Below are positions 1-12,299 of a DNA stretch of 12,299 bases, one piece after another (position 1 is the first letter of the stretch; every line of letters begins with the position of its first letter). Below the pieces are notes generated by a model. It was not told where the DNA came from, did no database searches, and saw only the letters and a list, made by a program, of their open reading frames with translations. The DNA is from a virus. Its lineage: Duplodnaviria > Heunggongvirae > Uroviricota > Caudoviricetes. The DNA lies in the IMG/VR virus record IMGVR_UViG_2778261165_000013. One strand, given 5' to 3'. A program made the translations under genes and the position numbers.

Positions 1-224
1 GCTTGCGGGCGTTCATGCTCAGAAACAAGGTTGGGACAAGCACTTCCAGGCTAACACAGTCAGAAATCGAAACGTACTCTCAACAGTTCGCTTAGGCATG
101 GAAGTTTTGCGGCATTCTGGCTACACAATAACAAGGGAAGACTTACTCGTGGCTGCAACCCTACTAGCTCAAAATTTATTCACACATGGTTACGCTTTGG
201 GGAAATTATGAGGGGATCTCTCAG
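1..224 (+). mobile_element. IS10 (IS4 family), partial copy: inside-end portion, element continues left of the window
   Basis: Terminus ...GGGGATCTCTCAG at 212..224 (reverse complement CTGAGAGATCCCCTCATAATTTCCCC) matches my recollection of the IS10 inside end, including its GATC Dam site. Positions 1..224 are the exact reverse complement of 12076..12299. Confidence 0.85.
2..211 (+). CDS. IS10 transposase, C-terminal 69 codons (5-prime part lies outside the window)
   Basis: Open frame from position 2 to TGA at 209..211 translating to LAGVHAQKQGWDKHFQANTVRNRNVLSTVRLGMEVLRHSGYTITREDLLVAATLLAQNLFTHGYALGKL, recognised as the IS10 transposase C-terminus. Confidence 0.8.
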   Translation, partial: LAGVHAQKQGWDKHFQANTVRNRNVLSTVRLGMEVLRHSGYTITREDLLVAATLLAQNLFTHGYALGKL

Positions 225-1359
225 TACTCAGCATCGACAGTCCTTTAAGTACCCTTATCTGAATTTCCCTCATACTGGCACCATCGCGCGCAACAGGTGA
301 GAAAAAGTCTTCAAGTAGATCGTTATTCTGAAGTGGTGCAACATGTACAGAAGGATATTTCACTTCTATTTCATCAGATTTATTCTGCGCGTAAGCGGAA
401 AGTATACGTACACCTCTGCCAATGACATCAATGGCGGTTCCAGGATCGTTCACTGCGGGGGAAAGGGCTCGGCAGGCTATTTCGGCCATGACGCTAAGAC
501 AAAATCGGGGGTCCTGAGCAAATGAACGTACATCCGAGACAATAATCGTCTCAAGTAAATCGGTGCTGATTGATGACTCCTGGCCCTGACTCAGGTACAA
601 AACTGGCGTGGACGGATGTATGAAACTGCCCGGCTGCGCCACGAGGTATACATGACGGGGATCATTGGTCAGCAGCTTGCTGAGTTTCACCATATCAACA
701 TATTCAACATAGCCAATCTTTTTCGGATAAACTGCAACCGTTCCTTTCGGCTGTTCATTGTTCTCAAGCCATGGATATCCGCCGAGACAGGGATTTCTTG
801 CTCTCGCAATAAATGTTTCGATGGCCGCCTGTTCTACTTTTGCCGTTGTCTCACCAACCCTCCCCAGAGAGGTCAAATGCTGTATCCAGCGAAGCAATGT
901 GATGAGGATTAAGGCAATGACAACCAGTGTTACAATGAATAAAATGACTCTCCCCCTTTCTCCATAAGCTCCCATATTGAGGGCAATAATCCCTACCAGA
1001 CTGAAGAGAAAAGAACCGATGAAGGTGGCCAGTACATTTTGTGTGGTGACGTCTTCAACAACTAAACGAGTAGCTCTGGGAGTCACATTAGTAGTGGCTG
1101 AACCGTAGGCTGTGACCATGATGCTCAGCGAAAATGTGGTCACTGCCAGCATACTCGATGCCAGTATGTTCAGAATGTTATCGACTGCTTCCGCACCAAC
1201 CTTCACGGAAACCGACTCAGGTATCATTGATTTAAAAAGAATTGATAAAAGGGCCGTTATTATTGCGACAATTGCGAATAACGTTGCCCTGAACCATAGT
1301 TTTTTAAATGTCTGCTTCAGCATCCATTTCCAGCGTGAAATCATTCTGCATTCCCTCAT
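190..1359 (-). CDS. Predicted inner-membrane protein (possibly DUF2254/COG4325-like), 3-prime end truncated by IS10; last ~11 codons (ERSPHNFPKA) are IS10-encoded
   Basis: 389-aa ORF with several hydrophobic helices in the N-terminal ~170 aa and a soluble C-terminal region. The ORF crosses the IS10 terminus at 224/225 and stops inside IS10. Start is ambiguous: ATG at 1359, or ATG at 1344 (MISRW...) which has a GAGGGA Shine-Dalgarno 7 nt upstream. Family assignment is from memory only. Confidence 0.65.
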   Translation of the reverse strand: MRECRMISRWKWMLKQTFKKLWFRATLFAIVAIITALLSILFKSMIPESVSVKVGAEAVDNILNILASSMLAVTTFSLSIMVTAYGSATTNVTPRATRLVVEDVTTQNVLATFIGSFLFSLVGIIALNMGAYGERGRVILFIVTLVVIALILITLLRWIQHLTSLGRVGETTAKVEQAAIETFIARARNPCLGGYPWLENNEQPKGTVAVYPKKIGYVEYVDMVKLSKLLTNDPRHVYLVAQPGSFIHPSTPVLYLSQGQESSISTDLLETIIVSDVRSFAQDPRFCLSVMAEIACRALSPAVNDPGTAIDVIGRGVRILSAYAQNKSDEIEVKYPSVHVAPLQNNDLLEDFFSPVARDGASMREIQIRVLKGLSMLSTERSPHNFPKA

Positions 1360-1379
1360 ATTGCAGCCGGGATAAATAA

Positions 1380-1400
1380 ATGCCGCCTCTGTGGCGGCAT
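1380..1400 (-). terminator. Candidate intrinsic terminator between the BCCT transporter gene and the membrane-protein gene
   Basis: Perfect 8-bp stem ATGCCGCC (1380..1387) / GGCGGCAT (1393..1400) with a 5-nt loop; on the minus strand it is followed by TTATTTATC. Confidence 0.45.
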
Positions 1401-1407
1401 GTTGCTG

Positions 1408-3411
1408 TTAACGAACCAGATGCAGGAAGTGCAGGTGTTTTTCGTACTGGTCCAGTATGTCATTAATCAGCTGTTCCTGATTCCAGCCCATTACATCATA
1501 ATTTTGGCCGCCCTCTTTGAGATAGACTTCAGCGCGATAATATCGATGTTGTTCACTCTGCTGCTCATCATTATCCAGCGCAGCGAGCGCGAAGGTCGGT
1601 GAGTTATACCCGCGAAGCCTCACTTCATATATATAATTCAGCTCGTTGCCCAAATCGACTTCAAGGCGAATACGATCCTCGGCGGCGTCACTGATGTGGC
1701 TTATCGTTCCCTGCTTGTTAAGTTCCTCCTGAACCAGCGTCATGGCGGGTTGGATAATGTCGTCCATAAAACGTTTCACAAGAGAGCGCTTCGGCAAATA
1801 CGCGATATTGCGTAACCTTCTCTGCCAGGGAATTGGGTTACGTGCAGCCGTAGGAGCAATAGTCGCCATGCTAAGGCTTTCACGCTTGGTCAAATCCCGA
1901 CGCAGGGCTTTTAACAGTCCGTATATGGATATTAATAAGATAACTGAGAAGGGCAATGCACTCGCTATCGTTACGGTTTGCAACGCACTCAGCCCCCCTG
2001 CGATCAGCAGGGCAATAGCAACAACGCCCATGAGCGATGCCCAGAAAATTCGCTGCCAGACGGGCGTGTTTGCCACCCCACCTGATGCCAGAGTATCCAC
2101 AACCATTGCCCCCGAATCAGCAGACGTTACAAAGAAGACGATGACCATCGCCATTGCAATGAATGACAGCACGGAAGAGAACGGGAAATGCTCCAGGAAA
2201 TTAAACAGGGCAAGCGCAACATCCTGCTGAACGGTATTGGCGAGGTCAGTGGCGCCCTGGTTCATGATGAGATAGATGGCGCTGTTTCCAAACACCGTCA
2301 TCCACATGAGCGTAAAGCCGGCGGGAACAAACAACACGCCAGTCACGAACTCACGAATTGTCCTGCCGCGGGAAACGCGTGCAATGAACATACCTACAAA
2401 CGGCGACCATGAAAGCCACCATCCCCAGTATAATAATGTCCAGCCCCCCAGCCAGTTGCTCGACTTGGGTTCATACGCGTAAAGGTTGAACGTTTTACTC
2501 ACCAGTTCCGACAGATAACCACCCGTATTTTCCACAAATGACTTCAGCAGAAGCACAGTGGGACCCAGGCACAAGACCAGCGCCAGGAGCAACACCGCCA
2601 GGCCCAGATTAAGCTCAGACAGGATGCGTATTCCCTTGTCCAGGCCGGACACCACCGAAATCGTCGCTAACCCCGTGATGACCACGATCAAAATGACCTG
2701 TACCGTTTCATTGATGGGCACGCCGAAAAGATGGTTCAAACCGGCATTCACCTGCAATACACCGTAACCCAGCGATGTTGCAACGCCAAAGACAGTGCCT
2801 ATCACGGCGAAGATATCAACCGCGTGGCCTATAGGCCCGTAAATGCGATCGCCGATAATGGGATAGAGCGCAGAACGCAGCGTTAAAGGCAGACCGTGAC
2901 GGTAACTGAAAAAGGCCAGAATCAGCGCCACGATGGCATAAATTGCCCATGCGTGCAGACCCCAGTGGAAGAACGTCAGGCGCATGGCTTCCTTCGCTGC
3001 CGCAACGGTCTCTGGAGTGCCGACAGGTGGCGAAAGATAATGCATCACAGGTTCGGCAACGCCAAAGAACATCAGGCCGATCCCCATCCCTGCCGAAAAA
3101 AGCATCGCGAACCAGGAGTGGTAGCTGAAATCAGGCTGCGCATGGTCTGGGCCCAGCTTTATATCACCGTAACGTGAGAGTCCAAGGAACGTGACGCTCA
3201 GTAAAATCAGGGCCACAGCAAGTATGTAGAACCAGCTGGCATTCGTGAAGATTTGTTGCTGAAGTAGTTTAAAATTTTTGTCGGCGACATCCGGGAATAC
3301 GGCGGCAAAGGCGACAAGAAGGAAAATTAGCAAAGCAGATGTAAAGAATACCGCTTTGTTAATCTGGCTTGTAGACTTCTTTGGGGTTGTATCATTTTCA
3401 CTCATAATCAT
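1408..3411 (-). CDS. BCCT-family transporter, BetT-like (choline/betaine/carnitine transporter paralog), 667 aa
   Basis: Long polytopic membrane protein with a BetT-like pattern (…GIGLMFFGVAEP…, …WTLLYWGWWLSWSPFVGMFIARVSRGRTIREF…) and a ~170-aa hydrophilic C-terminal tail ending DILDQYEKHLHFLHLVR, as in E. coli BetT. Not identical to my recollection of BetT itself. Confidence 0.88.
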   Translation of the reverse strand: MIMSENDTTPKKSTSQINKAVFFTSALLIFLLVAFAAVFPDVADKNFKLLQQQIFTNASWFYILAVALILLSVTFLGLSRYGDIKLGPDHAQPDFSYHSWFAMLFSAGMGIGLMFFGVAEPVMHYLSPPVGTPETVAAAKEAMRLTFFHWGLHAWAIYAIVALILAFFSYRHGLPLTLRSALYPIIGDRIYGPIGHAVDIFAVIGTVFGVATSLGYGVLQVNAGLNHLFGVPINETVQVILIVVITGLATISVVSGLDKGIRILSELNLGLAVLLLALVLCLGPTVLLLKSFVENTGGYLSELVSKTFNLYAYEPKSSNWLGGWTLLYWGWWLSWSPFVGMFIARVSRGRTIREFVTGVLFVPAGFTLMWMTVFGNSAIYLIMNQGATDLANTVQQDVALALFNFLEHFPFSSVLSFIAMAMVIVFFVTSADSGAMVVDTLASGGVANTPVWQRIFWASLMGVVAIALLIAGGLSALQTVTIASALPFSVILLISIYGLLKALRRDLTKRESLSMATIAPTAARNPIPWQRRLRNIAYLPKRSLVKRFMDDIIQPAMTLVQEELNKQGTISHISDAAEDRIRLEVDLGNELNYIYEVRLRGYNSPTFALAALDNDEQQSEQHRYYRAEVYLKEGGQNYDVMGWNQEQLINDILDQYEKHLHFLHLVR

Positions 3412-3745
3412 TTATTCCATTAATTAAATCCGCACTGGATAGAAGGTACTACCTCTCACAGAGTAGCAAAGTTCAACTGGCTATGCGGGGTTAATCGGAA
3501 TGCATGGTGGAATGAGTGCCGATACAAATCATCCTATATTCTAAGGAGTTTTAAGTTACTCAGCCTGCCAATTACTGGGGCATTTAATTTGTATGATCTG
3601 TATCAAAGCTGGGATATAAGTTAAGTGAAGTATATTAGGCACGAATTACCAGCGTCTGCTCTTGGCACAAAGCGGACAACCACGCTAGCTCTACCCTGTG
3701 CCACAAAATGTCAATTTGCATCTGAACTAATGCACTTTAATCTCG

Positions 3746-4168
3746 TCACTTCAATAAATACCGAACATCCCCCTGATAAAACGACAATATGCGCTGCATA
3801 ACTTCGCTCTTCCGGCACTCGCGACAGATTATGTTTAGGCGACTGTCGTAGCGACGTATTTCTCCGTCAGGTAATGACCAGATAAGGTCCGGATCAACCA
3901 CAACCGGTTTCTTCAGCTTTGCCCTCGATAATTTTTTGCGGGCATTTTGCCAGTCTTTACGAGCCTGTTCAGACGGGAATAACCCGTAGCCAGAATTGTA
4001 TACATCGCCACTGGCAACCAGCTCTCTGGCCAGAACGCTCATCAGATATCTTGTTGCCCCAGTTTTAGCTTCCAGTTGTCGTAACGTCTCGCGCCCACTC
4101 TGGCGTACGAGTTCAAGAACCTGCCCTTTAATTTTTTCCCGCTCTTCTTGTGTAAAAACTTTTGCCAC
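3746..4168 (-). CDS. Hypothetical 140-aa protein downstream of the replication-initiator gene (possible winged-helix/helper protein)
   Basis: ORF with a strong AGGAGG Shine-Dalgarno ~6 nt upstream of the ATG at 4168, co-oriented with and 40 bp downstream of the initiator-like gene. No family recognised. Confidence 0.55.
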   Translation of the reverse strand: MAKVFTQEEREKIKGQVLELVRQSGRETLRQLEAKTGATRYLMSVLARELVASGDVYNSGYGLFPSEQARKDWQNARKKLSRAKLKKPVVVDPDLIWSLPDGEIRRYDSRLNIICRECRKSEVMQRILSFYQGDVRYLLK

Positions 4169-4208
4169 AAGCCCTCCTGAAAATTACCTCATGACCAGAA
4201 ATTAACAC

Positions 4209-5279
4209 TTACCCCCTGAAGCCCGGCGGAATTTCGTTATCCGGTTCAGAAATATGATTCACACAACGCTGGTTGTTCGTGCCGCTTACCGGGAGCAACC
4301 AGGGGTTCTCAAAATTCCGGTCCGGTCCAAAAAACGTCGTCGCTCGCTGAACAAATTCCGTTCCCGTTTTCCCGGTAGCCGCCAAGTATCTTGCGTAACG
4401 CCTCACGCCATCCAGCATGGCCTCTGGTGGCACCCCCTCGCGTAATCTGGCCTTCCAGGCACTGAAAGCGGATTTCTTCGGGTTTGCCCCAGCACGCAAC
4501 GGGTACTCCCGCCAGACCTGTTCGAACACATCCGGATAATCCACTCGTCCCACAGACTGCCCGGTGTTTTCCGGGACTACCCGATCGGTTTCCCGCTGAA
4601 TGGCGGAATCGGCTTCAGGCTGCTGCAGTTGGTGTGATTGCTCCGCCCTTGCGGTCATCACCTGCTGCACAGCGCCCGAATCGGCTTTCAGCGCATACGC
4701 TGAATCGGCTTCCGGTGTCGTGCCTGCTGGCTGACCAAGATTGACGGTCTGAACATCCCCTGCCTGGTTCGTGGCGTTTTTTACGCCATGGACCATAGTG
4801 TTTTGATCTTCTTGATCTGTATCTTTATCTGTATCTTTATCTGTCGTGACTCGTCGTGACATGTGCGTGACATTTCGTGACGCGCCGTGACAATCGCCAT
4901 TTTGTTCCCGCTTTCTTTCCCTCTCTCGCTGCGCCCTCTTGCGCTCTGCAGGAGATTTTGCGGTTTGCGAAATATTGCCGTTGTCCTCTTTAAGCACCTG
5001 GCGTTTTTCCCATCCAGTGATTAAATCACCATCAAGTACCCGCCCCTGCATCGTCTGCAAAATTGAATCAATTACCTCTTCTGTCACGTCGAGCGCACTT
5101 GCCAAATCTTCTGTCGTGACATCAATGTGACCTCGCGTGACATTTCGTGACGCGCTCACCAGGAGGTGGATATACACTGCCATCACTGTTGCAATTGGCT
5201 GTCCTGACACCCTGGCAATTGTTCGCCACTTAGGGTCATTTGGCATGTCATGCCATAATCTGAGCCAGGCGTTAGCCAT
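4209..5279 (-). CDS. Phage replication-initiator-like protein (lambda O analog; position of ydaU in Rac) with origin iterons inside the coding sequence
   Basis: ORF of ~356 aa; the ATG at 5279 has a GAGGTGAG Shine-Dalgarno, while the ORF track starts at an upstream GTG at 5285. Sits immediately after the ydaT-like gene, as O follows cII in lambdoid phages. Contains two clusters of phased CGTGAC repeats, mirrored in the protein as a repeated ASRNVT segment and a low-complexity TDKDTDKDTD linker. Confidence 0.6.
   Translation of the reverse strand: MANAWLRLWHDMPNDPKWRTIARVSGQPIATVMAVYIHLLVSASRNVTRGHIDVTTEDLASALDVTEEVIDSILQTMQGRVLDGDLITGWEKRQVLKEDNGNISQTAKSPAERKRAQRERERKREQNGDCHGASRNVTHMSRRVTTDKDTDKDTDQEDQNTMVHGVKNATNQAGDVQTVNLGQPAGTTPEADSAYALKADSGAVQQVMTARAEQSHQLQQPEADSAIQRETDRVVPENTGQSVGRVDYPDVFEQVWREYPLRAGANPKKSAFSAWKARLREGVPPEAMLDGVRRYARYLAATGKTGTEFVQRATTFFGPDRNFENPWLLPVSGTNNQRCVNHISEPDNEIPPGFRG
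4817..4891. repeat. Candidate replication-origin iteron array 1: tandem 12-mer TCTGTATCTTTA x2, then five CGTGAC repeats phased at 10-11 bp
   Basis: CGTGAC at 4845, 4855, 4866, 4876 and 4886; AT-rich tandem 12-mers at 4817..4840; a polypyrimidine tract follows at ~4905..4945. Confidence 0.6.
5115..5155. repeat. Candidate iteron array 2: four YGTGAC repeats phased at 10-11 bp
   Basis: CGTGAC/TGTGAC at 5115, 5126, 5136 and 5146. The 21-mer GCGTGACATTTCGTGACGCGC at 5135..5155 is identical to 4865..4885. Confidence 0.55.
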
Positions 5280-5350
5280 ACTCACCTCTTTTGATACCGA
5301 ATCTTTTTACTCACAAATTGCCGGAAGTGATCCGGTATGAATATTGCGAG

Positions 5351-5776
5351 TCAATGCACAGCCACAATATTTCCTGCAGGGCCACCACGATTCATCTGGT
5401 TGAAACCAGCGATCGCCACTGCGACAAAATCATCAGCGTCTCTCACCAGTCGTTCCCGCGTCTCCACTAGTTCCCGAAAATAGGCTGAGCTATGGCTGCG
5501 CATTCGGGCCACCAGCAGAGGTGGCATTGCTTTTTCGATAGCTGGTAACAACGCCTGAATTTTTTCAACTGCATCAGGGGTGTCTTTCTCTACCCAGCGG
5601 AAAATTTTCTGGGTATTGCGAGCCAGGGCTTCCGGATGGCTGTCGTCATACAGTTCTGGGAACGTCATACCCAGTTCAAAATAAGCCCTGGTTATTTCAG
5701 CTGCCGGAACTTTTTCACCGTCCGGATGCGCCCAGGCATTCATCGCCATGCGGATGTGTTCATGCTTGATTTTCAT
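5351..5776 (-). CDS. ydaT: YdaT-like protein (CII-position gene of the Rac immunity region)
   Basis: 141-aa ORF with an AGGAG Shine-Dalgarno 9 nt upstream of the ATG at 5776; directly downstream of, and overlapping by 17 nt, the Cro-like gene. Symbol assigned by synteny and size; the sequence was not verified from memory. Confidence 0.6.
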   Translation of the reverse strand: MKIKHEHIRMAMNAWAHPDGEKVPAAEITRAYFELGMTFPELYDDSHPEALARNTQKIFRWVEKDTPDAVEKIQALLPAIEKAMPPLLVARMRSHSSAYFRELVETRERLVRDADDFVAVAIAGFNQMNRGGPAGNIVAVH

Positions 5777-6041
5777 GAATCAAGCTCCTAGAAAGTGGTT
5801 GTGTTAACATTTTGGTATCTTCCAGCTCGGGCCAAATATTCATCCAATCAAAAGGCCTTAGTTGCTGACGTGTAACTTCACCATTACTGGCTCGCTCAAT
5901 AAGGACACATAACGATGCCCCTAACACTTGACCTTTACTCAATGCCTTTCTTAGATAACCGATGCTGGTACCACACTCGCATGCAAACATACGCTGTTCA
6001 TCTGACGAAAGAGAATTGAGAAATATTCTTAATTCTTCCAT
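5760..6041 (-). CDS. ydaS: Cro-type helix-turn-helix regulator (YdaS-like)
   Basis: 93-aa ORF with an AAGGAG Shine-Dalgarno 7 nt upstream of the ATG at 6041; helix-turn-helix-like segment QRMFACECGTSIGYLRKALSKGQ; divergent from the repressor gene across an operator-containing 100-bp spacer. Confidence 0.65.
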   Translation of the reverse strand: MEELRIFLNSLSSDEQRMFACECGTSIGYLRKALSKGQVLGASLCVLIERASNGEVTRQQLRPFDWMNIWPELEDTKMLTQPLSRSLIHENQA

Positions 6042-6070
6042 AGCTACTCCTTAGTAAACACAGCAAAGAA

Positions 6071-6148
6071 TACCCATAGGTAAACAAAAGTCAATACCCA
6101 CAGGTTGTTTACCTTGCAGTAATCGCATCTATTATTTACCTATGGACA
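6071..6148. promoter_or_regulatory. Operator cluster (OR-like) in the divergent ydaS / racR control region
   Basis: Copies of a 12-bp near-palindrome TACCYATRGGTA: TACCCATAGGTA at 6071..6082, TACCCACAGGTT at 6095..6106 (24 bp later) and TACCTATGGACA at 6137..6148, the last overlapping the racR start codon. Confidence 0.6.
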
Positions 6149-6561
6149 AATATGAATTTAGACGACAGCAACTCATCAAAATTCGTGATGAGAAATGCGA
6201 TGGTAAAGCGGTTAACGTGGCCAGAAAGATCGGGCGCGAGCCTTCTTATGTATCAAGAATGTTGTACCCAGAGGGGAAAAAGGGAAAAAAACGGATCGCT
6301 GATGATATGGTGGAGATTATCGAAGAGTCCTTTGGGTTACCCCGGGGATGGATGGATGGTATCGTTTCATCATCAACGAACACAGCCTCCAGTTATGAAA
6401 CAAGGGTTCTAACGCCACGACAACGTATTTTTTTAGATCTCTTAGACGAACTGCCAGAAAGTGAAGCGGATAACTTATTAAAAACTCTTGAAGAGAAAAA
6501 ACAGTATTACAATATGATCTACGAAGAAATCCGTAAAAAGAAAGCACAAAACGCATCATAG
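6142..6561 (+). CDS. racR: Prophage repressor-like helix-turn-helix protein (CI analog, RacR position)
   Basis: 139-aa ORF with an N-terminal helix-turn-helix (GKAVNVARKIGREPSYVSRML), divergent from the Cro-like gene and flanked on both sides by the palindromic operator motif. No in-frame upstream start exists before a stop at 6055. Length differs from the 158 aa I recall for K-12 RacR, so this may be a variant immunity type. Confidence 0.65.
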   Translation: MDKYEFRRQQLIKIRDEKCDGKAVNVARKIGREPSYVSRMLYPEGKKGKKRIADDMVEIIEESFGLPRGWMDGIVSSSTNTASSYETRVLTPRQRIFLDLLDELPESEADNLLKTLEEKKQYYNMIYEEIRKKKAQNAS

Positions 6562-6603
6562 CTCACCAAACAACTAGTCACCAGTTAAGACACCGCAAAA
6601 AGT

Positions 6604-6644
6604 TACCCATGGGTATTTACTTTTTAAATACCTATGGGTATCCT
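6604..6644 (+). promoter_or_regulatory. Second operator pair (OL-like) with candidate promoter for the ydaG-ydaF early transcript
   Basis: Perfect palindrome TACCCATGGGTA at 6604..6615 and TACCTATGGGTA at 6629..6640 (25 bp centre to centre). Possible -35 TTTACT (6616..6621) and -10 TATCCT (6639..6644) with a 17-bp spacer overlapping the operators. Confidence 0.5.
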
Positions 6645-6814
6645 TCTTTTCATACCAACCCACCCCGCCCCACAGAATGCAGGGCAATACTCGAGTTACC
6701 AGGCAGTGGTCAGGGGTTAAGTAGCCAGCCCGAGGCGTAAGAACATGACGGCGGGATTCAAATTTTGCAGTGCAGCAGTTAGTTCCGCCACCCGGCGTTA
6801 AGGGGAGAGATAAG

Positions 6815-6949
6815 ATGGTGCATTACGAAGTAGTTCAGTATTTGATGGATTGTTGCGGTATCACTTACAACCAGGCTGTGCAGGCTTTACGCAGCAACGA
6901 CTGGGATCTCTGGCAGGCAGAAGTCGCTATACGTAGCAACAAGATGTGA
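6815..6949 (+). CDS. ydaG: Rac prophage small protein YdaG (44 aa)
   Basis: Hand-translated: MVHYEVVQYLMDCCGITYNQAVQALRSNDWDLWQAEVAIRSNKM. Shine-Dalgarno AAGGGGAGAG upstream. Length matches what I recall for YdaG. Not in the ORF track because it is short. Confidence 0.7.
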   Translation: MVHYEVVQYLMDCCGITYNQAVQALRSNDWDLWQAEVAIRSNKM

Positions 6950-6959
6950 GATTCGCAAA

Positions 6960-7115
6960 ATGCAAAAAATCGACCTCGGCAACAACGAATCCCTGGTGTG
7001 CGGCGTGTTCCCCAACCAGGATGGAACGTTCACTGCCATGACGTATACCAAAAGCAAAACATTTAAAACCGAAACTGGTGCGCGCCGATGGTTGGAGAAG
7101 CACACAGTAAGCTAA
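6960..7115 (+). CDS. ydaF: Rac prophage small protein YdaF (51 aa)
   Basis: Hand-translated: MQKIDLGNNESLVCGVFPNQDGTFTAMTYTKSKTFKTETGARRWLEKHTVS. Starts 10 nt after the ydaG stop; its 3-prime end overlaps the convergent sieB stop by 4 nt. Confidence 0.7.
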   Translation: MQKIDLGNNESLVCGVFPNQDGTFTAMTYTKSKTFKTETGARRWLEKHTVS

Positions 7116-7600
7116 CGATTAAAACGTCTACTCCTGCTGTTCCAGAATAACTTCATAAAATGGGAGTATTTTTCGGTGACGAGATAATAAGAACAGTTTG
7201 CGCTATCACTCTGATGTTGAATGATGCCCTTCCGTTCTAATTTTTTCATAACCAGGTTACGGCAAGGAGAAGTGATAATAAGATTTCCTGTTTTAAGGAA
7301 ATCTTTAAATACAGCGATTTCTTTCTCAGATAAACGAAGCAATACTCGTTGCTCTGGTAGTAATGAATAATGCTTTTGAATATGTGCTCGCAATCTTGAG
7401 AAGGAAATGGCGACCACGAAAGAAAAGGCAAAAACGATAATCTGAAAGAGCCAAGGTATTTCAGTATAAGCATTGAATGCGACAGTAAACTCTTTCGGTA
7501 TCAGCCAGAGAGTGAGACCAAAAATGATAATCGTATACATAAGTCTTTCGAGTGGCTCGTTAGCAAAAAGTTTCAACAATGGAGTAAATACATCCAACAT
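7112..7600 (-). CDS. sieB: Superinfection exclusion protein B (SieB), 162 aa
   Basis: Sequence from MLDVFTPLLKLFANEPLERLMYTIIIFGLTLWLIPKEF… recognised as Rac SieB; membrane helices present. The ATG at 7600 has a GAGAG Shine-Dalgarno; the ORF-track start at 7723 is an unsupported upstream extension. Confidence 0.85.
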   Translation of the reverse strand: MLDVFTPLLKLFANEPLERLMYTIIIFGLTLWLIPKEFTVAFNAYTEIPWLFQIIVFAFSFVVAISFSRLRAHIQKHYSLLPEQRVLLRLSEKEIAVFKDFLKTGNLIITSPCRNLVMKKLERKGIIQHQSDSANCSYYLVTEKYSHFMKLFWNSRSRRFNR

Positions 7601-7817
7601 ATCAATAACTCTCAACTGTAAGGGTATTGAAATGTTAACACAAGCTCTCGCTGTAGGGGTATAGCCGAGACCACCGAAGCCCGGAGGTGGTGAAATAAAA
7701 CCGGGCACAACACGAAGGCGCATTTCCGATATCCATAAAGAGTCGGTCTTGTCTGTTAAATTTAAATGGTGGGAGTGCGCCTCCGGTTGTAAATAACGAC
7801 ATTGCTGTGTGTAGTCC

Positions 7818-7865
7818 TGGCGGCATCAGTTTTTTTCTTGAAGTTCGGCTGATGTCCGCCCTTTT
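7818..7865 (+). terminator. Candidate terminator-like hairpin in the sieB-kilR intergenic region
   Basis: GGCGGCATCAG (7818..7828) pairs with CTGATGTCCGCC (7848..7859) with one bulge and a 19-nt loop, followed by CTTTTTAAAG. The large loop makes it non-canonical. Confidence 0.35.
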
Positions 7866-8041
7866 TAAAGTGAATTTTGTGATGCGGTGAATGCGGCTAA
7901 GCGCACGTGGCACAGTTAAAAGTCATGTTAGTCCTTATTGGTTTGGGTGGGAAAGCCGACTGTAATTGTTAACTGGTTGCAGTCACCTGGAGGCACCAGG
8001 CACCGCATCAACAAAGTTCATTTGTAAAAATGGAGATAATT

Positions 8042-8263
8042 ATGATTGCACATCACTTCGGAACTGATGAAATACCACGTCAGTGTGTGACTCCTGGCGA
8101 TTATGTTCTTCATGAAGGCCGGACATATATTGCCTCGGCAAACAATATTAAAAAGCGAAAACTATATATTCGTAACCTGACCACAAAAACATGCATTACT
8201 GACCGCATGATTAAAGTCTTCCTCGGTCGTGATGGTTTACCTGTAAAGGCGGAGTCATGGTGA
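8042..8263 (+). CDS. kilR: Killing protein KilR (cell-division inhibitor), 73 aa
   Basis: [73 protein letters not shown] recognised as Rac KilR; GGAGA Shine-Dalgarno 5 nt upstream of the ATG at 8042. Confidence 0.88.
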
Positions 8264-8433
8264 TGACTAAGAAAATAAAATGTGCTTACCACCTTTGCAA
8301 AAAAGACGTTGAAGAAAGCAAAGCTATTGAAAGAATGCTTCACTTCATGCACGGGATTTTATCAAAAGACGAACCGAGAAAATATTGCAGTGAAGCTTGT
8401 GCCGAAAAAGACCAGATGGCACATGAACTTTAA
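8263..8433 (+). CDS. ydaE: Rac prophage small protein YdaE (56 aa)
   Basis: Hand-translated: [56 protein letters not shown]. The ATG overlaps the kilR stop (TGATGACT), suggesting translational coupling. Confidence 0.75.
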   Translation: MTKKIKCAYHLCKKDVEESKAIERMLHFMHGILSKDEPRKYCSEACAEKDQMAHEL

Positions 8434-8507
8434 TTAATTGACTATTCGAAACTGAATTTATGCCAGAAATGGCAGGTATTCGCTCAACCTTAATTAAGGA
8501 GAAAAAC

Positions 8508-8783
8508 ATGATTACCAATTATGAAGCCACTGTTGTAACTACCGATGACATTGTTCACGAGGTGAATCTGGAAGGAAAGCGCATTGGCTACGTAATTAAA
8601 ACAGAAAATAAAGAAACCCCATTCACTGTGGTTGATATCGATGGTCCATCAGGCAACGTAAAAACACTTGATGAAGGTGTCAAAAAAATGTGCCTGGTGC
8701 ATATCGGAAAGAATCTGCCCGCAGAAAAAAAAGCCGAATTTCTGGCAACTCTAATTGCAATGAAATTAAAAGGTGAAATCTGA
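8508..8783 (+). CDS. racC: RacC protein (91 aa)
   Basis: MITNYEATVVTTDDIVHEVNLEGKRIGYVIKTENKETPFTVVDIDGPSGNVKTLDEGVKKMCLVHIGKNLPAEKKAEFLATLIAMKLKGEI recognised as RacC; AAGGAG Shine-Dalgarno 6 nt upstream of the ATG at 8508. Confidence 0.88.
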   Translation: MITNYEATVVTTDDIVHEVNLEGKRIGYVIKTENKETPFTVVDIDGPSGNVKTLDEGVKKMCLVHIGKNLPAEKKAEFLATLIAMKLKGEI

Positions 8784-8788
8784 AAGAA

Positions 8789-8813
8789 ATAGCCTGCGTA
8801 TGGCGCAGGCTAT
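8789..8813 (+). other. Perfect 10-bp stem-loop between racC and recE, with no U-tract
   Basis: ATAGCCTGCG (8789..8798), loop TATGG, CGCAGGCTAT (8804..8813), starting 6 nt after the racC stop. Confidence 0.5.
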
Positions 8814-8884
8814 GAACAGTGTGTATCCGGCAAGATCATTCACTGAACAAAACGAATTTTAATCTGAGTTGAGGTTAAAAAACA

Positions 8885-11485
8885 ATGAGCACAAAACCAC
8901 TCTTCCTGTTACGGAAAGCGAAAAAATCATCCGGTGAACCTGACGTCGTCCTGTGGGCAAGCAACGATTTTGAATCGACCTGTGCCACTCTGGACTACCT
9001 GATCGTTAAGTCAGGTAAAAAACTGAGCAGCTATTTTAAAGCTGTTGCCACGAATTTTCCTGTCGTTAATGACCTGCCCGCTGAAGGTGAGATCGATTTT
9101 ACCTGGAGTGAACGCTATCAACTCAGCAAAGACTCCATGACATGGGAACTAAAACCGGGAGCAGCACCAGACAACGCTCACTATCAAGGCAATACCAACG
9201 TCAACGGCGAAGACATGACTGAGATTGAGGAGAATATGCTACTCCCAATTTCTGGCCAGGAACTGCCCATTCGTTGGCTTGCTCAACACGGCAGCGAAAA
9301 ACCGGTAACGCACGTTTCACGCGACGGACTCCAGGCATTACACATTGCTCGGGCTGAAGAACTACCGGCTGTTACTGCCCTGGCTGTTTCCCACAAAACC
9401 AGCCTGCTCGACCCGCTGGAAATTCGCGAACTCCACAAACTGGTTCGTGACACTGACAAAGTTTTCCCTAATCCTGGTAATTCAAACCTGGGACTGATAA
9501 CTGCTTTTTTCGAAGCATACCTGAACGCTGACTACACCGATCGAGGACTGCTGACAAAAGAGTGGATGAAGGGTAATCGTGTTTCACACATCACTCGCAC
9601 GGCTTCCGGTGCTAATGCTGGCGGCGGAAACCTCACCGATCGCGGCGAAGGTTTCGTACACGATCTGACGTCACTGGCGCGCGACGTAGCCACTGGCGTA
9701 CTGGCCCGTTCAATGGATCTGGACATCTATAACCTTCATCCGGCACACGCTAAACGCATTGAGGAAATTATCGCTGAAAATAAACCGCCCTTTTCTGTTT
9801 TCCGCGACAAATTCATCACCATGCCTGGCGGGCTGGATTATTCCCGCGCCATCGTGGTTGCGTCCGTAAAAGAAGCACCAATTGGGATCGAGGTCATCCC
9901 CGCGCACGTCACTGAATATCTGAACAAAGTACTGACTGAAACCGATCATGCCAACCCTGATCCGGAAATCGTGGATATTGCCTGCGGTCGCTCCTCTGCC
10001 CCGATGCCGCAGCGAGTAACAGAAGAAGGAAAACAGGATGATGAAGAAAAACCGCAACCATCTGGAACAACGGCAGTTGAACAGGGAGAGGCTGAAACAA
10101 TGGAACCGGACGCAACTGAACATCATCAGGACACGCAGCCGCTGGATGCTCAGTCACAGGTAAATTCTGTTGATGCGAAATATCAGGAACTGCGGGCAGA
10201 ACTCCATGAAGCCCGGAAAAACATTCCATCAAAAAATCCTGTCGATGCCGATAAATTGCTTGCTGCATCACGTGGTGAATTTGTTGACGGAATTAGCGAC
10301 CCGAACGATCCGAAATGGGTAAAGGGGATCCAGACTCGCGATTGTGTGTACCAGAACCAGCCAGAAACGGAAAAAACCAGCCCAGATATGAATCAACCTG
10401 AGCCAGTAGTGCAACAGGAACCGGAAATAGCCTGCAATGCCTGCGGCCAGACTGGCGGGGATAACTGCCCTGACTGTGGTGCGGTGATGGGCGACGCAAC
10501 ATACCAGGAAACATTCGCTGAAGAGAGTCAGGTTGAAGCTAAGGAAAATGATCCGGAGGAAATGGAAGGCGCTGAACATCCGCACAATGAGAATGCTGGC
10601 AGCGATCCGCATCGCGATTGCAGTGATGAAACTGGCGAAGTCGCAGATCCCGTAATCGTAGAAGACATAGAGCCAGGTATTTATTACGGAATTTCGAATG
10701 AGAATTACCACGCGGGTCCCGGTATCAGTAAGTCTCAGCTCGATGACATTGCTGATACTCCGGCACTATATTTGTGGCGTAAAAATGCCCCCGTGGACAC
10801 CACAAAGACAAAAACGCTCGATTTAGGAACTGCTTTCCACTGCCGGGTACTTGAACCGGAAGAATTCAGTAACCGCTTTATCGTAGCACCTGAATTTAAC
10901 CGCCGTACAAACGCCGGAAAAGAAGAAGAGAAAGCGTTTCTGATGGAATGCGCAAGCACAGGAAAAACGGTTATCACTGCGGAAGAAGGCCGGAAAATTG
11001 AACTCATGTATCAAAGCGTTATGGCTTTGCCGCTGGGGCAATGGCTTGTTGAAAGCGCCGGACACGCTGAATCATCAATTTACTGGGAAGATCCTGAAAC
11101 AGGAATTTTGTGTCGGTGCCGTCCGGACAAAATTATCCCTGAATTTCACTGGATCATGGACGTGAAAACTACGGCGGATATTCAACGATTCAAAACCGCT
11201 TATTACGACTACCGCTATCACGTTCAGGATGCATTCTACAGTGACGGTTATGAAGCACAGTTTGGAGTGCAGCCAACTTTCGTTTTTCTGGTTGCCAGCA
11301 CAACTATTGAATGCGGACGTTATCCGGTTGAAATTTTCATGATGGGCGAAGAAGCAAAACTGGCAGGTCAACAGGAATATCACCGCAATCTGCGAACCCT
11401 GTCTGACTGCCTGAATACCGATGAATGGCCAGCTATTAAGACATTATCACTGCCCCGCTGGGCTAAGGAATATGCAAATGACTAA
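8885..11485 (+). CDS. recE: Exodeoxyribonuclease VIII (RecE), full length 866 aa
   Basis: 866-aa ORF starting [29 protein letters not shown]… and ending …[13 protein letters not shown], recognised as E. coli Rac RecE. GAGG Shine-Dalgarno upstream; its stop overlaps the recT start in the ATGACTAAG arrangement. Confidence 0.95.
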
Positions 11486-12110
11486 GCAACCACCAATCGC
11501 AAAAGCCGATCTGCAAAAAACTCAGGGAAACCGTGCACCAGCAGCAGTTAAAAATAGCGACGTGATTAGTTTTATTAACCAGCCATCAATGAAAGAGCAA
11601 CTGGCAGCAGCTCTTCCACGCCATATGACGGCTGAACGTATGATCCGTATCGCCACCACAGAAATTCGTAAAGTTCCGGCGTTAGGAAACTGTGACACTA
11701 TGAGTTTTGTCAGTGCGATCGTACAGTGTTCACAGCTCGGACTTGAGCCAGGTAGCGCCCTCGGTCATGCATATTTACTGCCTTTTGGTAATAAAAACGA
11801 AAAGAGCGGTAAAAAGAACGTTCAGCTAATCATTGGCTATCGCGGCATGATTGATCTGGCTCGCCGTTCTGGTCAAATCGCCAGCCTGTCAGCCCGTGTT
11901 GTCCGTGAAGGTGACGAGTTTAGCTTCGAATTTGGCCTTGATGAAAAGTTAATACACCGCCCGGGAGAAAACGAAGATGCCCCGGTTACCCACGTCTATG
12001 CTGTCGCAAGACTGAAAGACGGAGGTACTCAGTTTGAAGTTATGACGCGCAAACAGATTGAGCTGGTGCGCAGCCCTGAGAGATCCCCTCATAATTTCCC
12101 CAAAGCGTAA
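11478..12110 (+). pseudogene. recT: recT (RecT single-strand annealing protein) truncated by IS10 after codon 199; chimeric ORF ends with the IS10-encoded tail PERSPHNFPKA
   Basis: Begins [41 protein letters not shown]…, recognised as RecT (full length 269 aa). Native sequence ends at 12075, where the IS10 inside end begins, and the reading frame runs 32 nt into IS10 to a TAA. Confidence 0.9.
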
Positions 12111-12299
12111 CCATGTGTGAATAAATTTTGAGCTAGTAGGGTTGCAGCCACGAGTAAGTCTTCCCTTGTTATTGTGTAGCCAGAATGCCGCAAAACTTCC
12201 ATGCCTAAGCGAACTGTTGAGAGTACGTTTCGATTTCTGACTGTGTTAGCCTGGAAGTGCTTGTCCCAACCTTGTTTCTGAGCATGAACGCCCGCAAGC
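12076..12299 (-). mobile_element. IS10 (IS4 family), partial copy: inside-end portion, element continues right of the window, inverted relative to the left copy
   Basis: Begins CTGAGAGATCCCCTCATAATTTCCCCAAAGCGTAACC… and is the exact reverse complement of 1..224. Confidence 0.85.
12089..12298 (-). CDS. IS10 transposase, C-terminal 69 codons (partial)
   Basis: Mirror image of the 2..211 coding fragment on the minus strand. Confidence 0.8.
   Translation of the reverse strand, partial: LAGVHAQKQGWDKHFQANTVRNRNVLSTVRLGMEVLRHSGYTITREDLLVAATLLAQNLFTHGYALGKL

Follow-up and report, generated by a model that had tools for sequence, protein, structure and literature searches.

A short-read E. coli contig very probably bounded by two separately inserted IS10 copies in native chromosomal DNA

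Does a stretch of DNA framed by two inverted IS10 ends represent a composite transposon that moved as a whole, or the chromosomal interval between two IS10 copies that arrived separately? The question is raised by the window analysed here, the whole 12,299-bp stretch, which is the entire draft contig NTPJ01000084.1 (GCA_002463735.1) and belongs to the E. coli chromosome. The decision between a composite and separate insertions comes from a test of target duplication and synteny, and we conclude that the window is very probably a short-read contig lying between two IS10 copies inserted separately into native chromosomal DNA. The finding is ordinary and is already present in annotated public genomes.

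The contig and its IS10 ends

The features of the window are as follows; positions of the individual prophage genes were converted to window coordinates from the RefSeq annotation of L001, the locus of the complete relatives described below.

1..224, plus strand: left IS10 (ISVsa5), final 224 bp, matching 1329-bp copies A and C of L001 exactly
2-211, plus strand: 3' end of the transposase gene in the left IS10, stop at 209-211 (from the translation)
about 202-224: inside-end terminal repeat of the left IS10, GATC at 214-217
225..233: TACTCAGCA, 9-bp target into which the left IS10 inserted, 5/6 positions of NGCTNAGCN
190..1359, minus strand: DUF2254 membrane-protein gene, 5' part, cut at 225 (Pfam PF10011, E=1e-92; RefSeq start 1344)
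1408..3411, minus strand: BCCT-family (BetT-like) transporter gene, intact (Pfam PF02028, E=7e-199)
3134-3142: GGCTGCGCA, site of a third IS10 in the complete relatives, without IS10 in the window
3746..8783: early region of a Rac-type prophage remnant (annotated by RefSeq in the identical L001 sequence; Pfam marks)
3746-4168, minus strand: DUF977
4209-5279, minus strand: replisome organizer
5351-5776, minus strand: ydaT
5760-6041, minus strand: ydaS
6142-6561, plus strand: repressor-like ORF
6960-7115, plus strand: ydaF
7112-7600, minus strand: sieB
8042-8263, plus strand: kilR
8263-8433, plus strand: ydaE
8508-8783, plus strand: racC
8885..11485, plus strand: recE (exodeoxyribonuclease VIII), intact (Pfam PF06630, PF12684; annotation)
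11478..12110, plus strand: recT 5' part, native to 12075, then an IS10-encoded tail (Pfam RecT)
12067..12075: TGCGCAGCC, target 9-mer in recT, abutting the right IS10 at its inside end
12076..12299, minus strand: right IS10, final 224 bp, inside end at 12076, equal to the tail of IS C (1329 bp) in L001

Positions 1-224 and 12076-12299 are exact reverse complements, as the earlier note had claimed; an inverted-repeat search of the window gave slightly longer arms (1-233/12067-12299, 98% identity), of which the 4 mismatches all lie within the flanking 9-mers. These terminal segments are the same as the final 224 bp of IS10/ISVsa5 copies that are present at full length (1329 bp) in a complete genome, and hold the transposase 3' end (...HGYALGKL*, the final 69 codons) and the terminal sequence CTGAGAGATCCCCTCATAATTT, in agreement with the earlier reading of an IS10 inside end plus transposase 3' end. 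The ends that face the cargo are indeed inside ends, and the copies are indeed inverted with these ends inward, since RNA-OUT and the transposase start are at the opposite end of the full copies. In L001, each of the three IS10 copies has RNA-OUT (Rfam RF00240) at its outside end, scoring 97-99 bits for a gathering score of 41; copies A and C carry CTGATGAATCCCCTAATGATTTT at that end, and positions 5185-6393 encode a 402-aa DDE transposase (PF01609, E=1.5e-24). The same RF00240 search gave no match in the window, as expected from the absence of outside ends there.

The cargo consists of the DUF2254 gene fragment, the intact BCCT transporter gene and a Rac-type remnant running from DUF977 to recE and the truncated recT, so that the former description of a Rac-type prophage segment plus a BCCT transporter is supported by Pfam and by RefSeq annotation. 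The remnant is lambdoid and of Rac type, with intR-xisR beside ttcA and a recE-recT-racC-kilR-sieB early region (RefSeq annotation of L001 and of the native locus L002; Pfam marks RecT, Exonuc_VIII and SieB/KilR/YdaT). Translation also confirms that both truncated genes, DUF2254 and recT, acquire the same IS10-encoded tail, ERSPHNFPKA*. The truncated recT covers positions 1-148 of the 198 of the Pfam RecT profile, and it is annotated in L001 as a pseudogene without its C-terminus.

The 9-mers next to the two inside ends, TACTCAGCA (225-233) and TGCGCAGCC (12067-12075), each match the IS10 consensus NGCTNAGCN at 5/6 positions, as had been noticed from the window, in which only 0.54% of all 9-mers reach this level; all four 9-mers that flank the IS copies do so. 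Both the NGCTNAGCN target consensus and a 9-bp duplication have been described for IS10 (PMC4574204).

A draft contig that ends in a repeat, with overhangs suspiciously equal at 224 bp, could suggest that the terminal repeats are an assembly artefact, produced when an IS copy was collapsed or wrongly joined, and that there are no real junctions at 224/225 and 12075/12076. The overhang lengths are indeed set by the assembler, because the contig of a second assembly (L004) shares the right junction but ends 136 bp into IS10. The equality of the overhangs is accounted for by the assembler having halted in the repeat, and the contig ends within both IS10 copies because IS10 is highly repeated in the strain. 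The junctions themselves are found base-for-base in two independently sequenced complete genomes, and further draft assemblies carry the fusions (5 contigs for recT and 3 for DUF2254). Together with flanking 9-mers that are good IS10 targets, this makes an artefact extremely improbable. What had been missed earlier is that the terminal repeats are draft-contig ends in a genome where IS10 occupies at least 40 places.

Native synteny and the left IS10

Of 5,426 complete genomes, only 2 have both junctions: those of the chicken E. coli strains Z1323CEC0004 and Z1323CEC0002, in each of which IS10 occupies at least 40 places. Positions 225-12075 of the window are 100% identical to L001 after removal of a third IS10 (IS B) and its 9 bp. 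This third copy, absent from the window, interrupts the BCCT gene of the relatives, where it is flanked by the duplication GGCTGCGCA, and the L001 locus has three IS10 copies within 16 kb. The two complete relatives already differ from the window by this one extra IS10. The literature on the source strains yielded nothing beyond an unrelated mention.

The native gene order, MFS-GGCT-LysR-DUF2254-BCCT-Rac remnant-xisR-intR-ttcA, is kept outside both IS copies. The IS-free chromosome of strain 165 is collinear with the cargo as well as with the outer flank on each side. On the left, IS A is 1329 bp long in L001 and has a perfect 9-bp direct repeat, TACTCAGCA, at both sides; the two halves of the DUF2254 gene, annotated as two pseudogene halves, lie on either side of it, the 3' remnant being the outer of the two. 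In strain 165, TACTCAGCA is single-copy and the flanks joined across IS A are contiguous. The left IS10 is an untouched solo insertion of the simple type, because it has its own perfect 9-bp duplication. Duplications at NGCTNAGCN-like sites are thus seen for the left copy (TACTCAGCA twice) and for the third copy (GGCTGCGCA twice). On the right, IS C is also 1329 bp long and identical in sequence to IS A. Full-length copies of about 1.3 kb beyond both ends, as predicted in the earlier note, are therefore present in the complete relatives, and we infer the same full IS10 length, and the same outer flanks, in the window's own genome.

These observations bear on the idea that a Tn10-like composite transposed whole and brought the prophage and transporter segment to its current position. 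Such an idea is attractive in that the IS10 copies are inverted with their outside ends outermost, and in that neither copy in the relatives has lost its ends, its RNA-OUT or its 402-aa transposase gene, which is intact and identical in the two. Nevertheless, the left IS10 has a duplication of its own, and the 9-mers beyond the two outside ends in L001 differ (TACTCAGCA on the left, TGCTTCGCA on the right), so that the direct 9-bp duplication that might have surrounded the whole unit is absent. In addition, cargo and outer flanks are collinear with strain 165, the exact junctions are limited to one lineage and one locus, and a search for plasmids covering at least 80% of the window found none. 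Since the outer 9-mers differ and the outer genes are native neighbours, the unit has never moved as one piece, and transposition of the composite to this position is barely credible. The mobilisable Tn10-like composite of the earlier note is thus abandoned in favour of its alternative, two independent chromosomal insertions, which is essentially what the duplication and synteny of the relatives show. Two related candidates were rejected. A Tn10-promoted deletion or inversion from inside ends as the origin of the geometry would yield direct IS10 copies and loss of the interior, and here the native interior is complete. A role of IS10 as carrier of a plasmid-borne DUF2254-BCCT module was discarded because the plasmid loci have no IS10 ends.

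The two IS10 copies very probably arrived separately, by cut-and-paste into preferred 9-bp targets in the DUF2254 gene and in recT. The inverted geometry with inside ends inward is then due to chance, as one of four equally likely arrangements. The resulting 14.5-kb IS10-cargo-IS10 unit has the architecture of Tn10 and could move in principle; it shows no sign of past movement. It is very unlikely that the IS10 pair acts as a functional 14.5-kb composite that occasionally mobilises its cargo to new replicons, or that it makes the 11.85-kb segment invertible. The cargo in the mobilisation reading would be recE, the Rac immunity/replication region and the genes for BCCT and truncated DUF2254. 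Inversion would proceed by recombination between the inverted copies, and a short-read contig would be identical in both orientations.

The right IS10 and the adjacent 792-bp deletion

In L001, IS C is flanked by TGCGCAGCC in recT at its inside end and by TGCTTCGCA in xisR at its outside end. These flanks map to positions 17033 and 17826 of L002, and 792 bp of native DNA are gone: the recT 3' end, ralR, rcbA and the first 49 nt of xisR. The protein encoded by the truncated xisR is identical to residues 17-71 of native XisR. The right copy has no duplication because of this adjacent deletion. Hence the expectation that each IS10 would have its own duplication is realised on the left (TACTCAGCA twice) and fails on the right, and the recT 3' remainder anticipated just beyond the right IS10 is not there, since the deleted 792 bp lie beside the outside end.

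The recT site is a recurrent target. The same 9-mer, TGCGCAGCC, was hit by an identical IS10 sequence in TP6-1 (NZ_CP139677.1) and in ET5 (NZ_CP101014.1), and its reverse complement GGCTGCGCA is the BCCT site of the third copy; this 9-mer has been struck repeatedly and independently. Unlike the copy studied here, the TP6-1 insertion points the other way, is flanked by a perfect duplication and leaves ralR-rcbA-xisR intact. In ET5 the orientation matches the one found here, but the rearrangement is on the inside-end side, not on the outside-end side; the outside end there retains TGCGCAGCC and the recT remainder, which is the junction of a putative precursor. ET5 was nevertheless rejected as a clear ancestor, as its flank shows 9 SNPs per 3.3 kb and its other side is rearranged.

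The history of the right copy, which has no duplication to observe, is a reconstruction, and we infer the route of the deletion. A second, directly oriented IS10 would have landed at TGCTTCGCA in xisR, and recombination between the direct copies at recT and xisR is the most likely cause of the loss of the 792 bp. Tn10 and IS10 move by cut-and-paste, and the transposase-made adjacent deletions recovered in one comparison start from inside ends only (PMC2723962). Given this restriction, the position of the deletion at the outside end favours recombination between IS copies. Less likely than recombination of two copies is a rare adjacent deletion made by transposase. Starting from a simple insertion in recT, intramolecular transposition of an aberrant or sister-chromatid kind would remove the 792 bp in one step, with the geometry unchanged and with no recombination between two IS10 copies. 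We consider this one-step route possible though rather unlikely. The endpoint TGCTTCGCA is a 5/6 IS10 target and would fit a choice made by transposase, but a second insertion followed by recombination accounts equally well for it. For the one-step route, the known simple insertions into the recT site are plausible precursors. The two-copy intermediate was looked for, and no genome turned up that has IS10 at the xisR site or two direct copies. Local re-insertion is frequent, as the presence of three IS10 copies within 16 kb shows. Recombination and transposase deletion leave the same sequence, and the choice between them rests on generalisations from the literature.

Searches for relics of the preferred route, recombination between direct copies, gave little. 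The junction of the outside end with xisR was found only in the two Z1323 genomes, which offer no informative intermediate, and the putative junction made of the xisR 5' part, TGCTTCGCA and an inside end was not found. The only full-coverage match to this putative junction, in an O177:H21 genome, was dismissed: it consists of two separate pieces, and IS10 there is in intR with its own duplication, CGCTTTACC.

Comparison with Tn10 and with other IS10-rich strains

The locus has little importance beyond bookkeeping. One in four neighbouring pairs of any multi-copy IS should make the ends of a draft contig look like Tn10. With recT inactivated and with the ralR toxin gene, rcbA and the start of xisR lost, the Rac remnant is probably locked in place. 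IS10 is expanding in a burst in this lineage: at least 40 places are occupied, and close relatives differ by a further insertion.

The locus shares with Tn10 two inverted 1329-bp IS10 copies, inside ends inward and the more active outside ends outermost, as well as the DDE transposase, RNA-OUT, 9-bp duplications and NGCTNAGCN-like targets of the element itself. The interior of Tn10 carries tetR/tetA, whereas here it is 11.85 kb of native chromosome (truncated DUF2254, BCCT and the Rac remnant). In contrast with Tn10, the unit lies in native synteny with no 9-bp duplication around it, and the left copy by itself is flanked by one. The flanking copies are identical here, whereas IS10L and IS10R of Tn10 differ by 19 bases (PMC10044804). 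Also comparable are the heat-evolved E. coli BM28 strains, in which 17 IS10 copies and solo IS10R insertions were described (PMC10044804): in both cases simple, scattered insertions interrupt genes, and copy number rises despite cut-and-paste transposition. Unlike these laboratory Tn10 strains, the present lineage is natural and chicken-associated, and one of its copies is accompanied by a 792-bp adjacent deletion.

IS10 ends and their full-length counterparts

Both termini of the window are IS10 ends, as the earlier note had proposed. By direct comparison, positions 12076–12299 are the exact reverse complement of 1–224, and a repeat search of the window returned inverted arms at 1–233 and 12067–12299 with 98% identity, the 4 mismatches all lying within the flanking 9-mers. 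Complete 1329-bp IS10 copies (PGAP name ISVsa5) of a finished genome end in exactly these 224 bases, which encode the transposase C-terminus (...HGYALGKL, then stop), followed by the terminal sequence CTGAGAGATCCCC... In the full copies the transposase start and RNA-OUT (Rfam RF00240, 97–99 bits) lie at the opposite end, so that the window termini are inside ends, and the inward orientation described previously is correct. Both flanking 9-mers score 5/6 against the consensus NGCTNAGCN, a score reproduced on recomputation and reached by only 0.54% of window 9-mers, and both interrupted genes, recT and DUF2254, do gain the common tail ERSPHNFPKA (then stop). All IS10 features testable here were found: length, ends, DDE transposase, RNA-OUT, 9-bp duplication and target consensus.

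An exact-protein look-up with the recT and DUF2254 fusions identified the window as the entire contig NTPJ01000084.1 (12,299 bp) of the draft assembly GCA_002463735.1. It ends inside IS10 on both sides because a short-read assembler fails to cross a multi-copy repeat, and that the overhangs are both 224 bp long reflects the assembly and has no biological cause. A contig of a second assembly is identical to window 5729–12211 and ends 136 bp into the same IS10. Among 5,426 complete E. coli genomes, only two have both junctions base for base, Z1323CEC0004 and Z1323CEC0002; these were isolated from chickens in South Korea, and each has at least 40 IS10 places. Extension past the window ends in a 26-kb locus of the former (L001) confirmed the expected full 1329-bp copies, A and C.

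IS10 copies in L001
A (left): L001 5078–6406, 1329 bp, in the DUF2254 gene, remnants on both sides; flanks TACTCAGCA and TACTCAGCA, perfect duplication; window 1–224
B (third): L001 9325–10653, 1329 bp, in the BCCT gene; flanks GGCTGCGCA and GGCTGCGCA, perfect duplication; absent from the window
C (right): L001 19596–20924, 1329 bp, in recT; flanks TGCGCAGCC (inside end) and TGCTTCGCA (outside end); window 12076–12299

Copies A and C are identical in sequence, whereas B differs from them at 15 positions, which cluster towards its two ends, so two or more IS10 variants are present, or active, in that strain; IS10L and IS10R are reported to be 19 bases apart (PMC10044804). Removal of copy B and one 9-mer from L001 yields window 225–12075 with 0 differences across 11,851 bp; the strain behind the window is thus very closely related and still lacks this third IS10. 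To the left of the window's chromosomal place (L001 945–4369), the gamma-glutamylcyclotransferase and LysR genes, immediately upstream of DUF2254, are interrupted by two IS3-family elements, which with the three IS10 copies makes five IS insertions within ~20 kb in Z1323CEC0004.

Native order and origin of the IS10 pair

In the IS-free strain 165 (locus L002), the gene order is MFS, gamma-glutamylcyclotransferase, LysR, DUF2254, BCCT, Rac remnant and ttcA, the remnant itself reading DUF977, replisome organizer, ydaT, ..., sieB, kilR, ydaE, racC, recE, recT, ralR, rcbA, xisR, intR. The window interior is collinear with this locus at 99.5–99.8% identity, except for a divergent immunity region. 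The flanks of copy A are adjacent to each other in L002, as are those of copy B, and copy A is a classic example of simple insertion. All genes inside and outside the pair are in native order, L001 resuming with xisR'-intR-ttcA-dbpA past a deletion beside copy C. Of the two interpretations offered earlier, a Tn10-like composite and independent insertions, the second is therefore retained, from the left copy's own duplication and the native order. The 9-mers beyond the left and right outside ends, which would be the same for a composite, differ (TACTCAGCA on the left, TGCTTCGCA on the right). Arrival of an IS10–cargo–IS10 unit by transposition is ruled out by the left duplication, the unequal outer 9-mers and the native order. 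No PLSDB plasmid covers at least 80% of the window. The orientation of the pair is uninformative, because a quarter of independent insertion pairs would have their inside ends facing inward, and at least 40 copies give many neighbouring pairs. The inverted copies could mediate inversion of the 11.85-kb segment, for which the short-read contig would be the same either way.

Several features of the interior deserve mention. The immunity region (window 5565–6433, ydaS and repressor-like genes) gave no alignment to the strain 165 Rac remnant, which indicates a mosaic swap of this module between Rac variants. Nine (C)GTGAC repeats on one strand, spaced by ~10–11 bp, form two clusters (4845–4891 and 5115–5152) inside the 'phage replisome organizer' gene (ORF 4209–5285, minus strand). 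They resemble origin iterons and could be a Rac-type origin; these putative iterons lie within the initiator gene, as the lambda ori lies within gene O. Many conjugative plasmids of E. coli, Klebsiella, Shigella and Salmonella carry the DUF2254 and BCCT (BetT-like) pair (window 225–3678; 3.7 kb at L002 4939–8638) with 99.9% identity. In two plasmid loci (L009 and L010) its surroundings include IS26, a site-specific integrase, relB, ISKpn19 and qnrS1. As no IS10 ends lie nearby, some other route has taken this seemingly chromosomal module onto resistance plasmids.

The deletion beside the right-hand IS10

Copy C has no duplication. Its flanks map to L002 17033 and 17826, and 792 bp of native DNA are absent beside its outside end: the final 212 nt of recT, the toxin gene ralR, rcbA and the initial 49 nt of xisR. 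The endpoint TGCTTCGCA is a 5/6 IS10 target, so the right junction is at a transposase-chosen site and does not reflect random breakage. Two routes would give an identical sequence: insertion of a second, directly oriented IS10 into the xisR site followed by homologous recombination of both copies, or a one-step adjacent deletion by transposase. The deletion adjoins the outside end, whereas adjacent deletions by the cut-and-paste Tn10/IS10 came solely from inside ends in the comparison reviewed, because outside-end cutting yields inviable products (PMC2723962). Recombination between two copies is thus probably the route taken, the one-step deletion being the less probable. Junction searches for precursors and for the outside-end/xisR junction found no intermediate.

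The recT match ends at position 148 of the 198 of the Pfam profile, and from this truncation RecET recombination should be lost. XisR is without its first 16 residues; just past the window's right end (L001 20922–21091), PGAP annotates a truncated xisR whose GTG start spans the IS10 outside-end/flank junction. The outside end carries the outward promoter pOUT (PMC4574204). Here pOUT is directed into xisR'-intR and, speculatively, may transcribe the truncated excisionase and the integrase.

The recT 9-mer as a target, and comparison with Tn10

IS10 has entered the recT 9-mer repeatedly. Strain TP6-1 (NZ_CP139677.1) carries a sequence-identical IS10 at exactly this site, in the opposite orientation and with a perfect TGCGCAGCC duplication, and this insertion is certainly independent of the window's. 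Strain ET5 (NZ_CP101014.1) has IS10 there in the window's orientation, its outside end adjoining TGCGCAGCC and the remaining recT-ralR-rcbA-xisR, its inside end adjoining unrelated prophage DNA. With 9 SNPs per 3.3 kb between the ET5 flank and the window lineage, this insertion is probably independent too. Read on the opposite strand, TGCGCAGCC is exactly GGCTGCGCA, the duplication of copy B. In the window this 9-mer occurs at 3134–3142, 5494–5502 and 12067–12075, two of the three sites being used by IS10 in the lineage. None of the three perfect 6/6 consensus sites of the window (1122, 5483 and 7895) has IS10, which suggests that this 9-mer, or the sequence around it, draws more insertions than the textbook consensus does.

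IS10 bursts are on record, as in heat-evolved BM28 strains with 17 copies (PMC10044804), and RefSeq annotation already records the insertions described here; the present finding is of a known kind, and its content is ordinary. The pair shares the architecture of Tn10, but it lacks the marks of a transposed unit.
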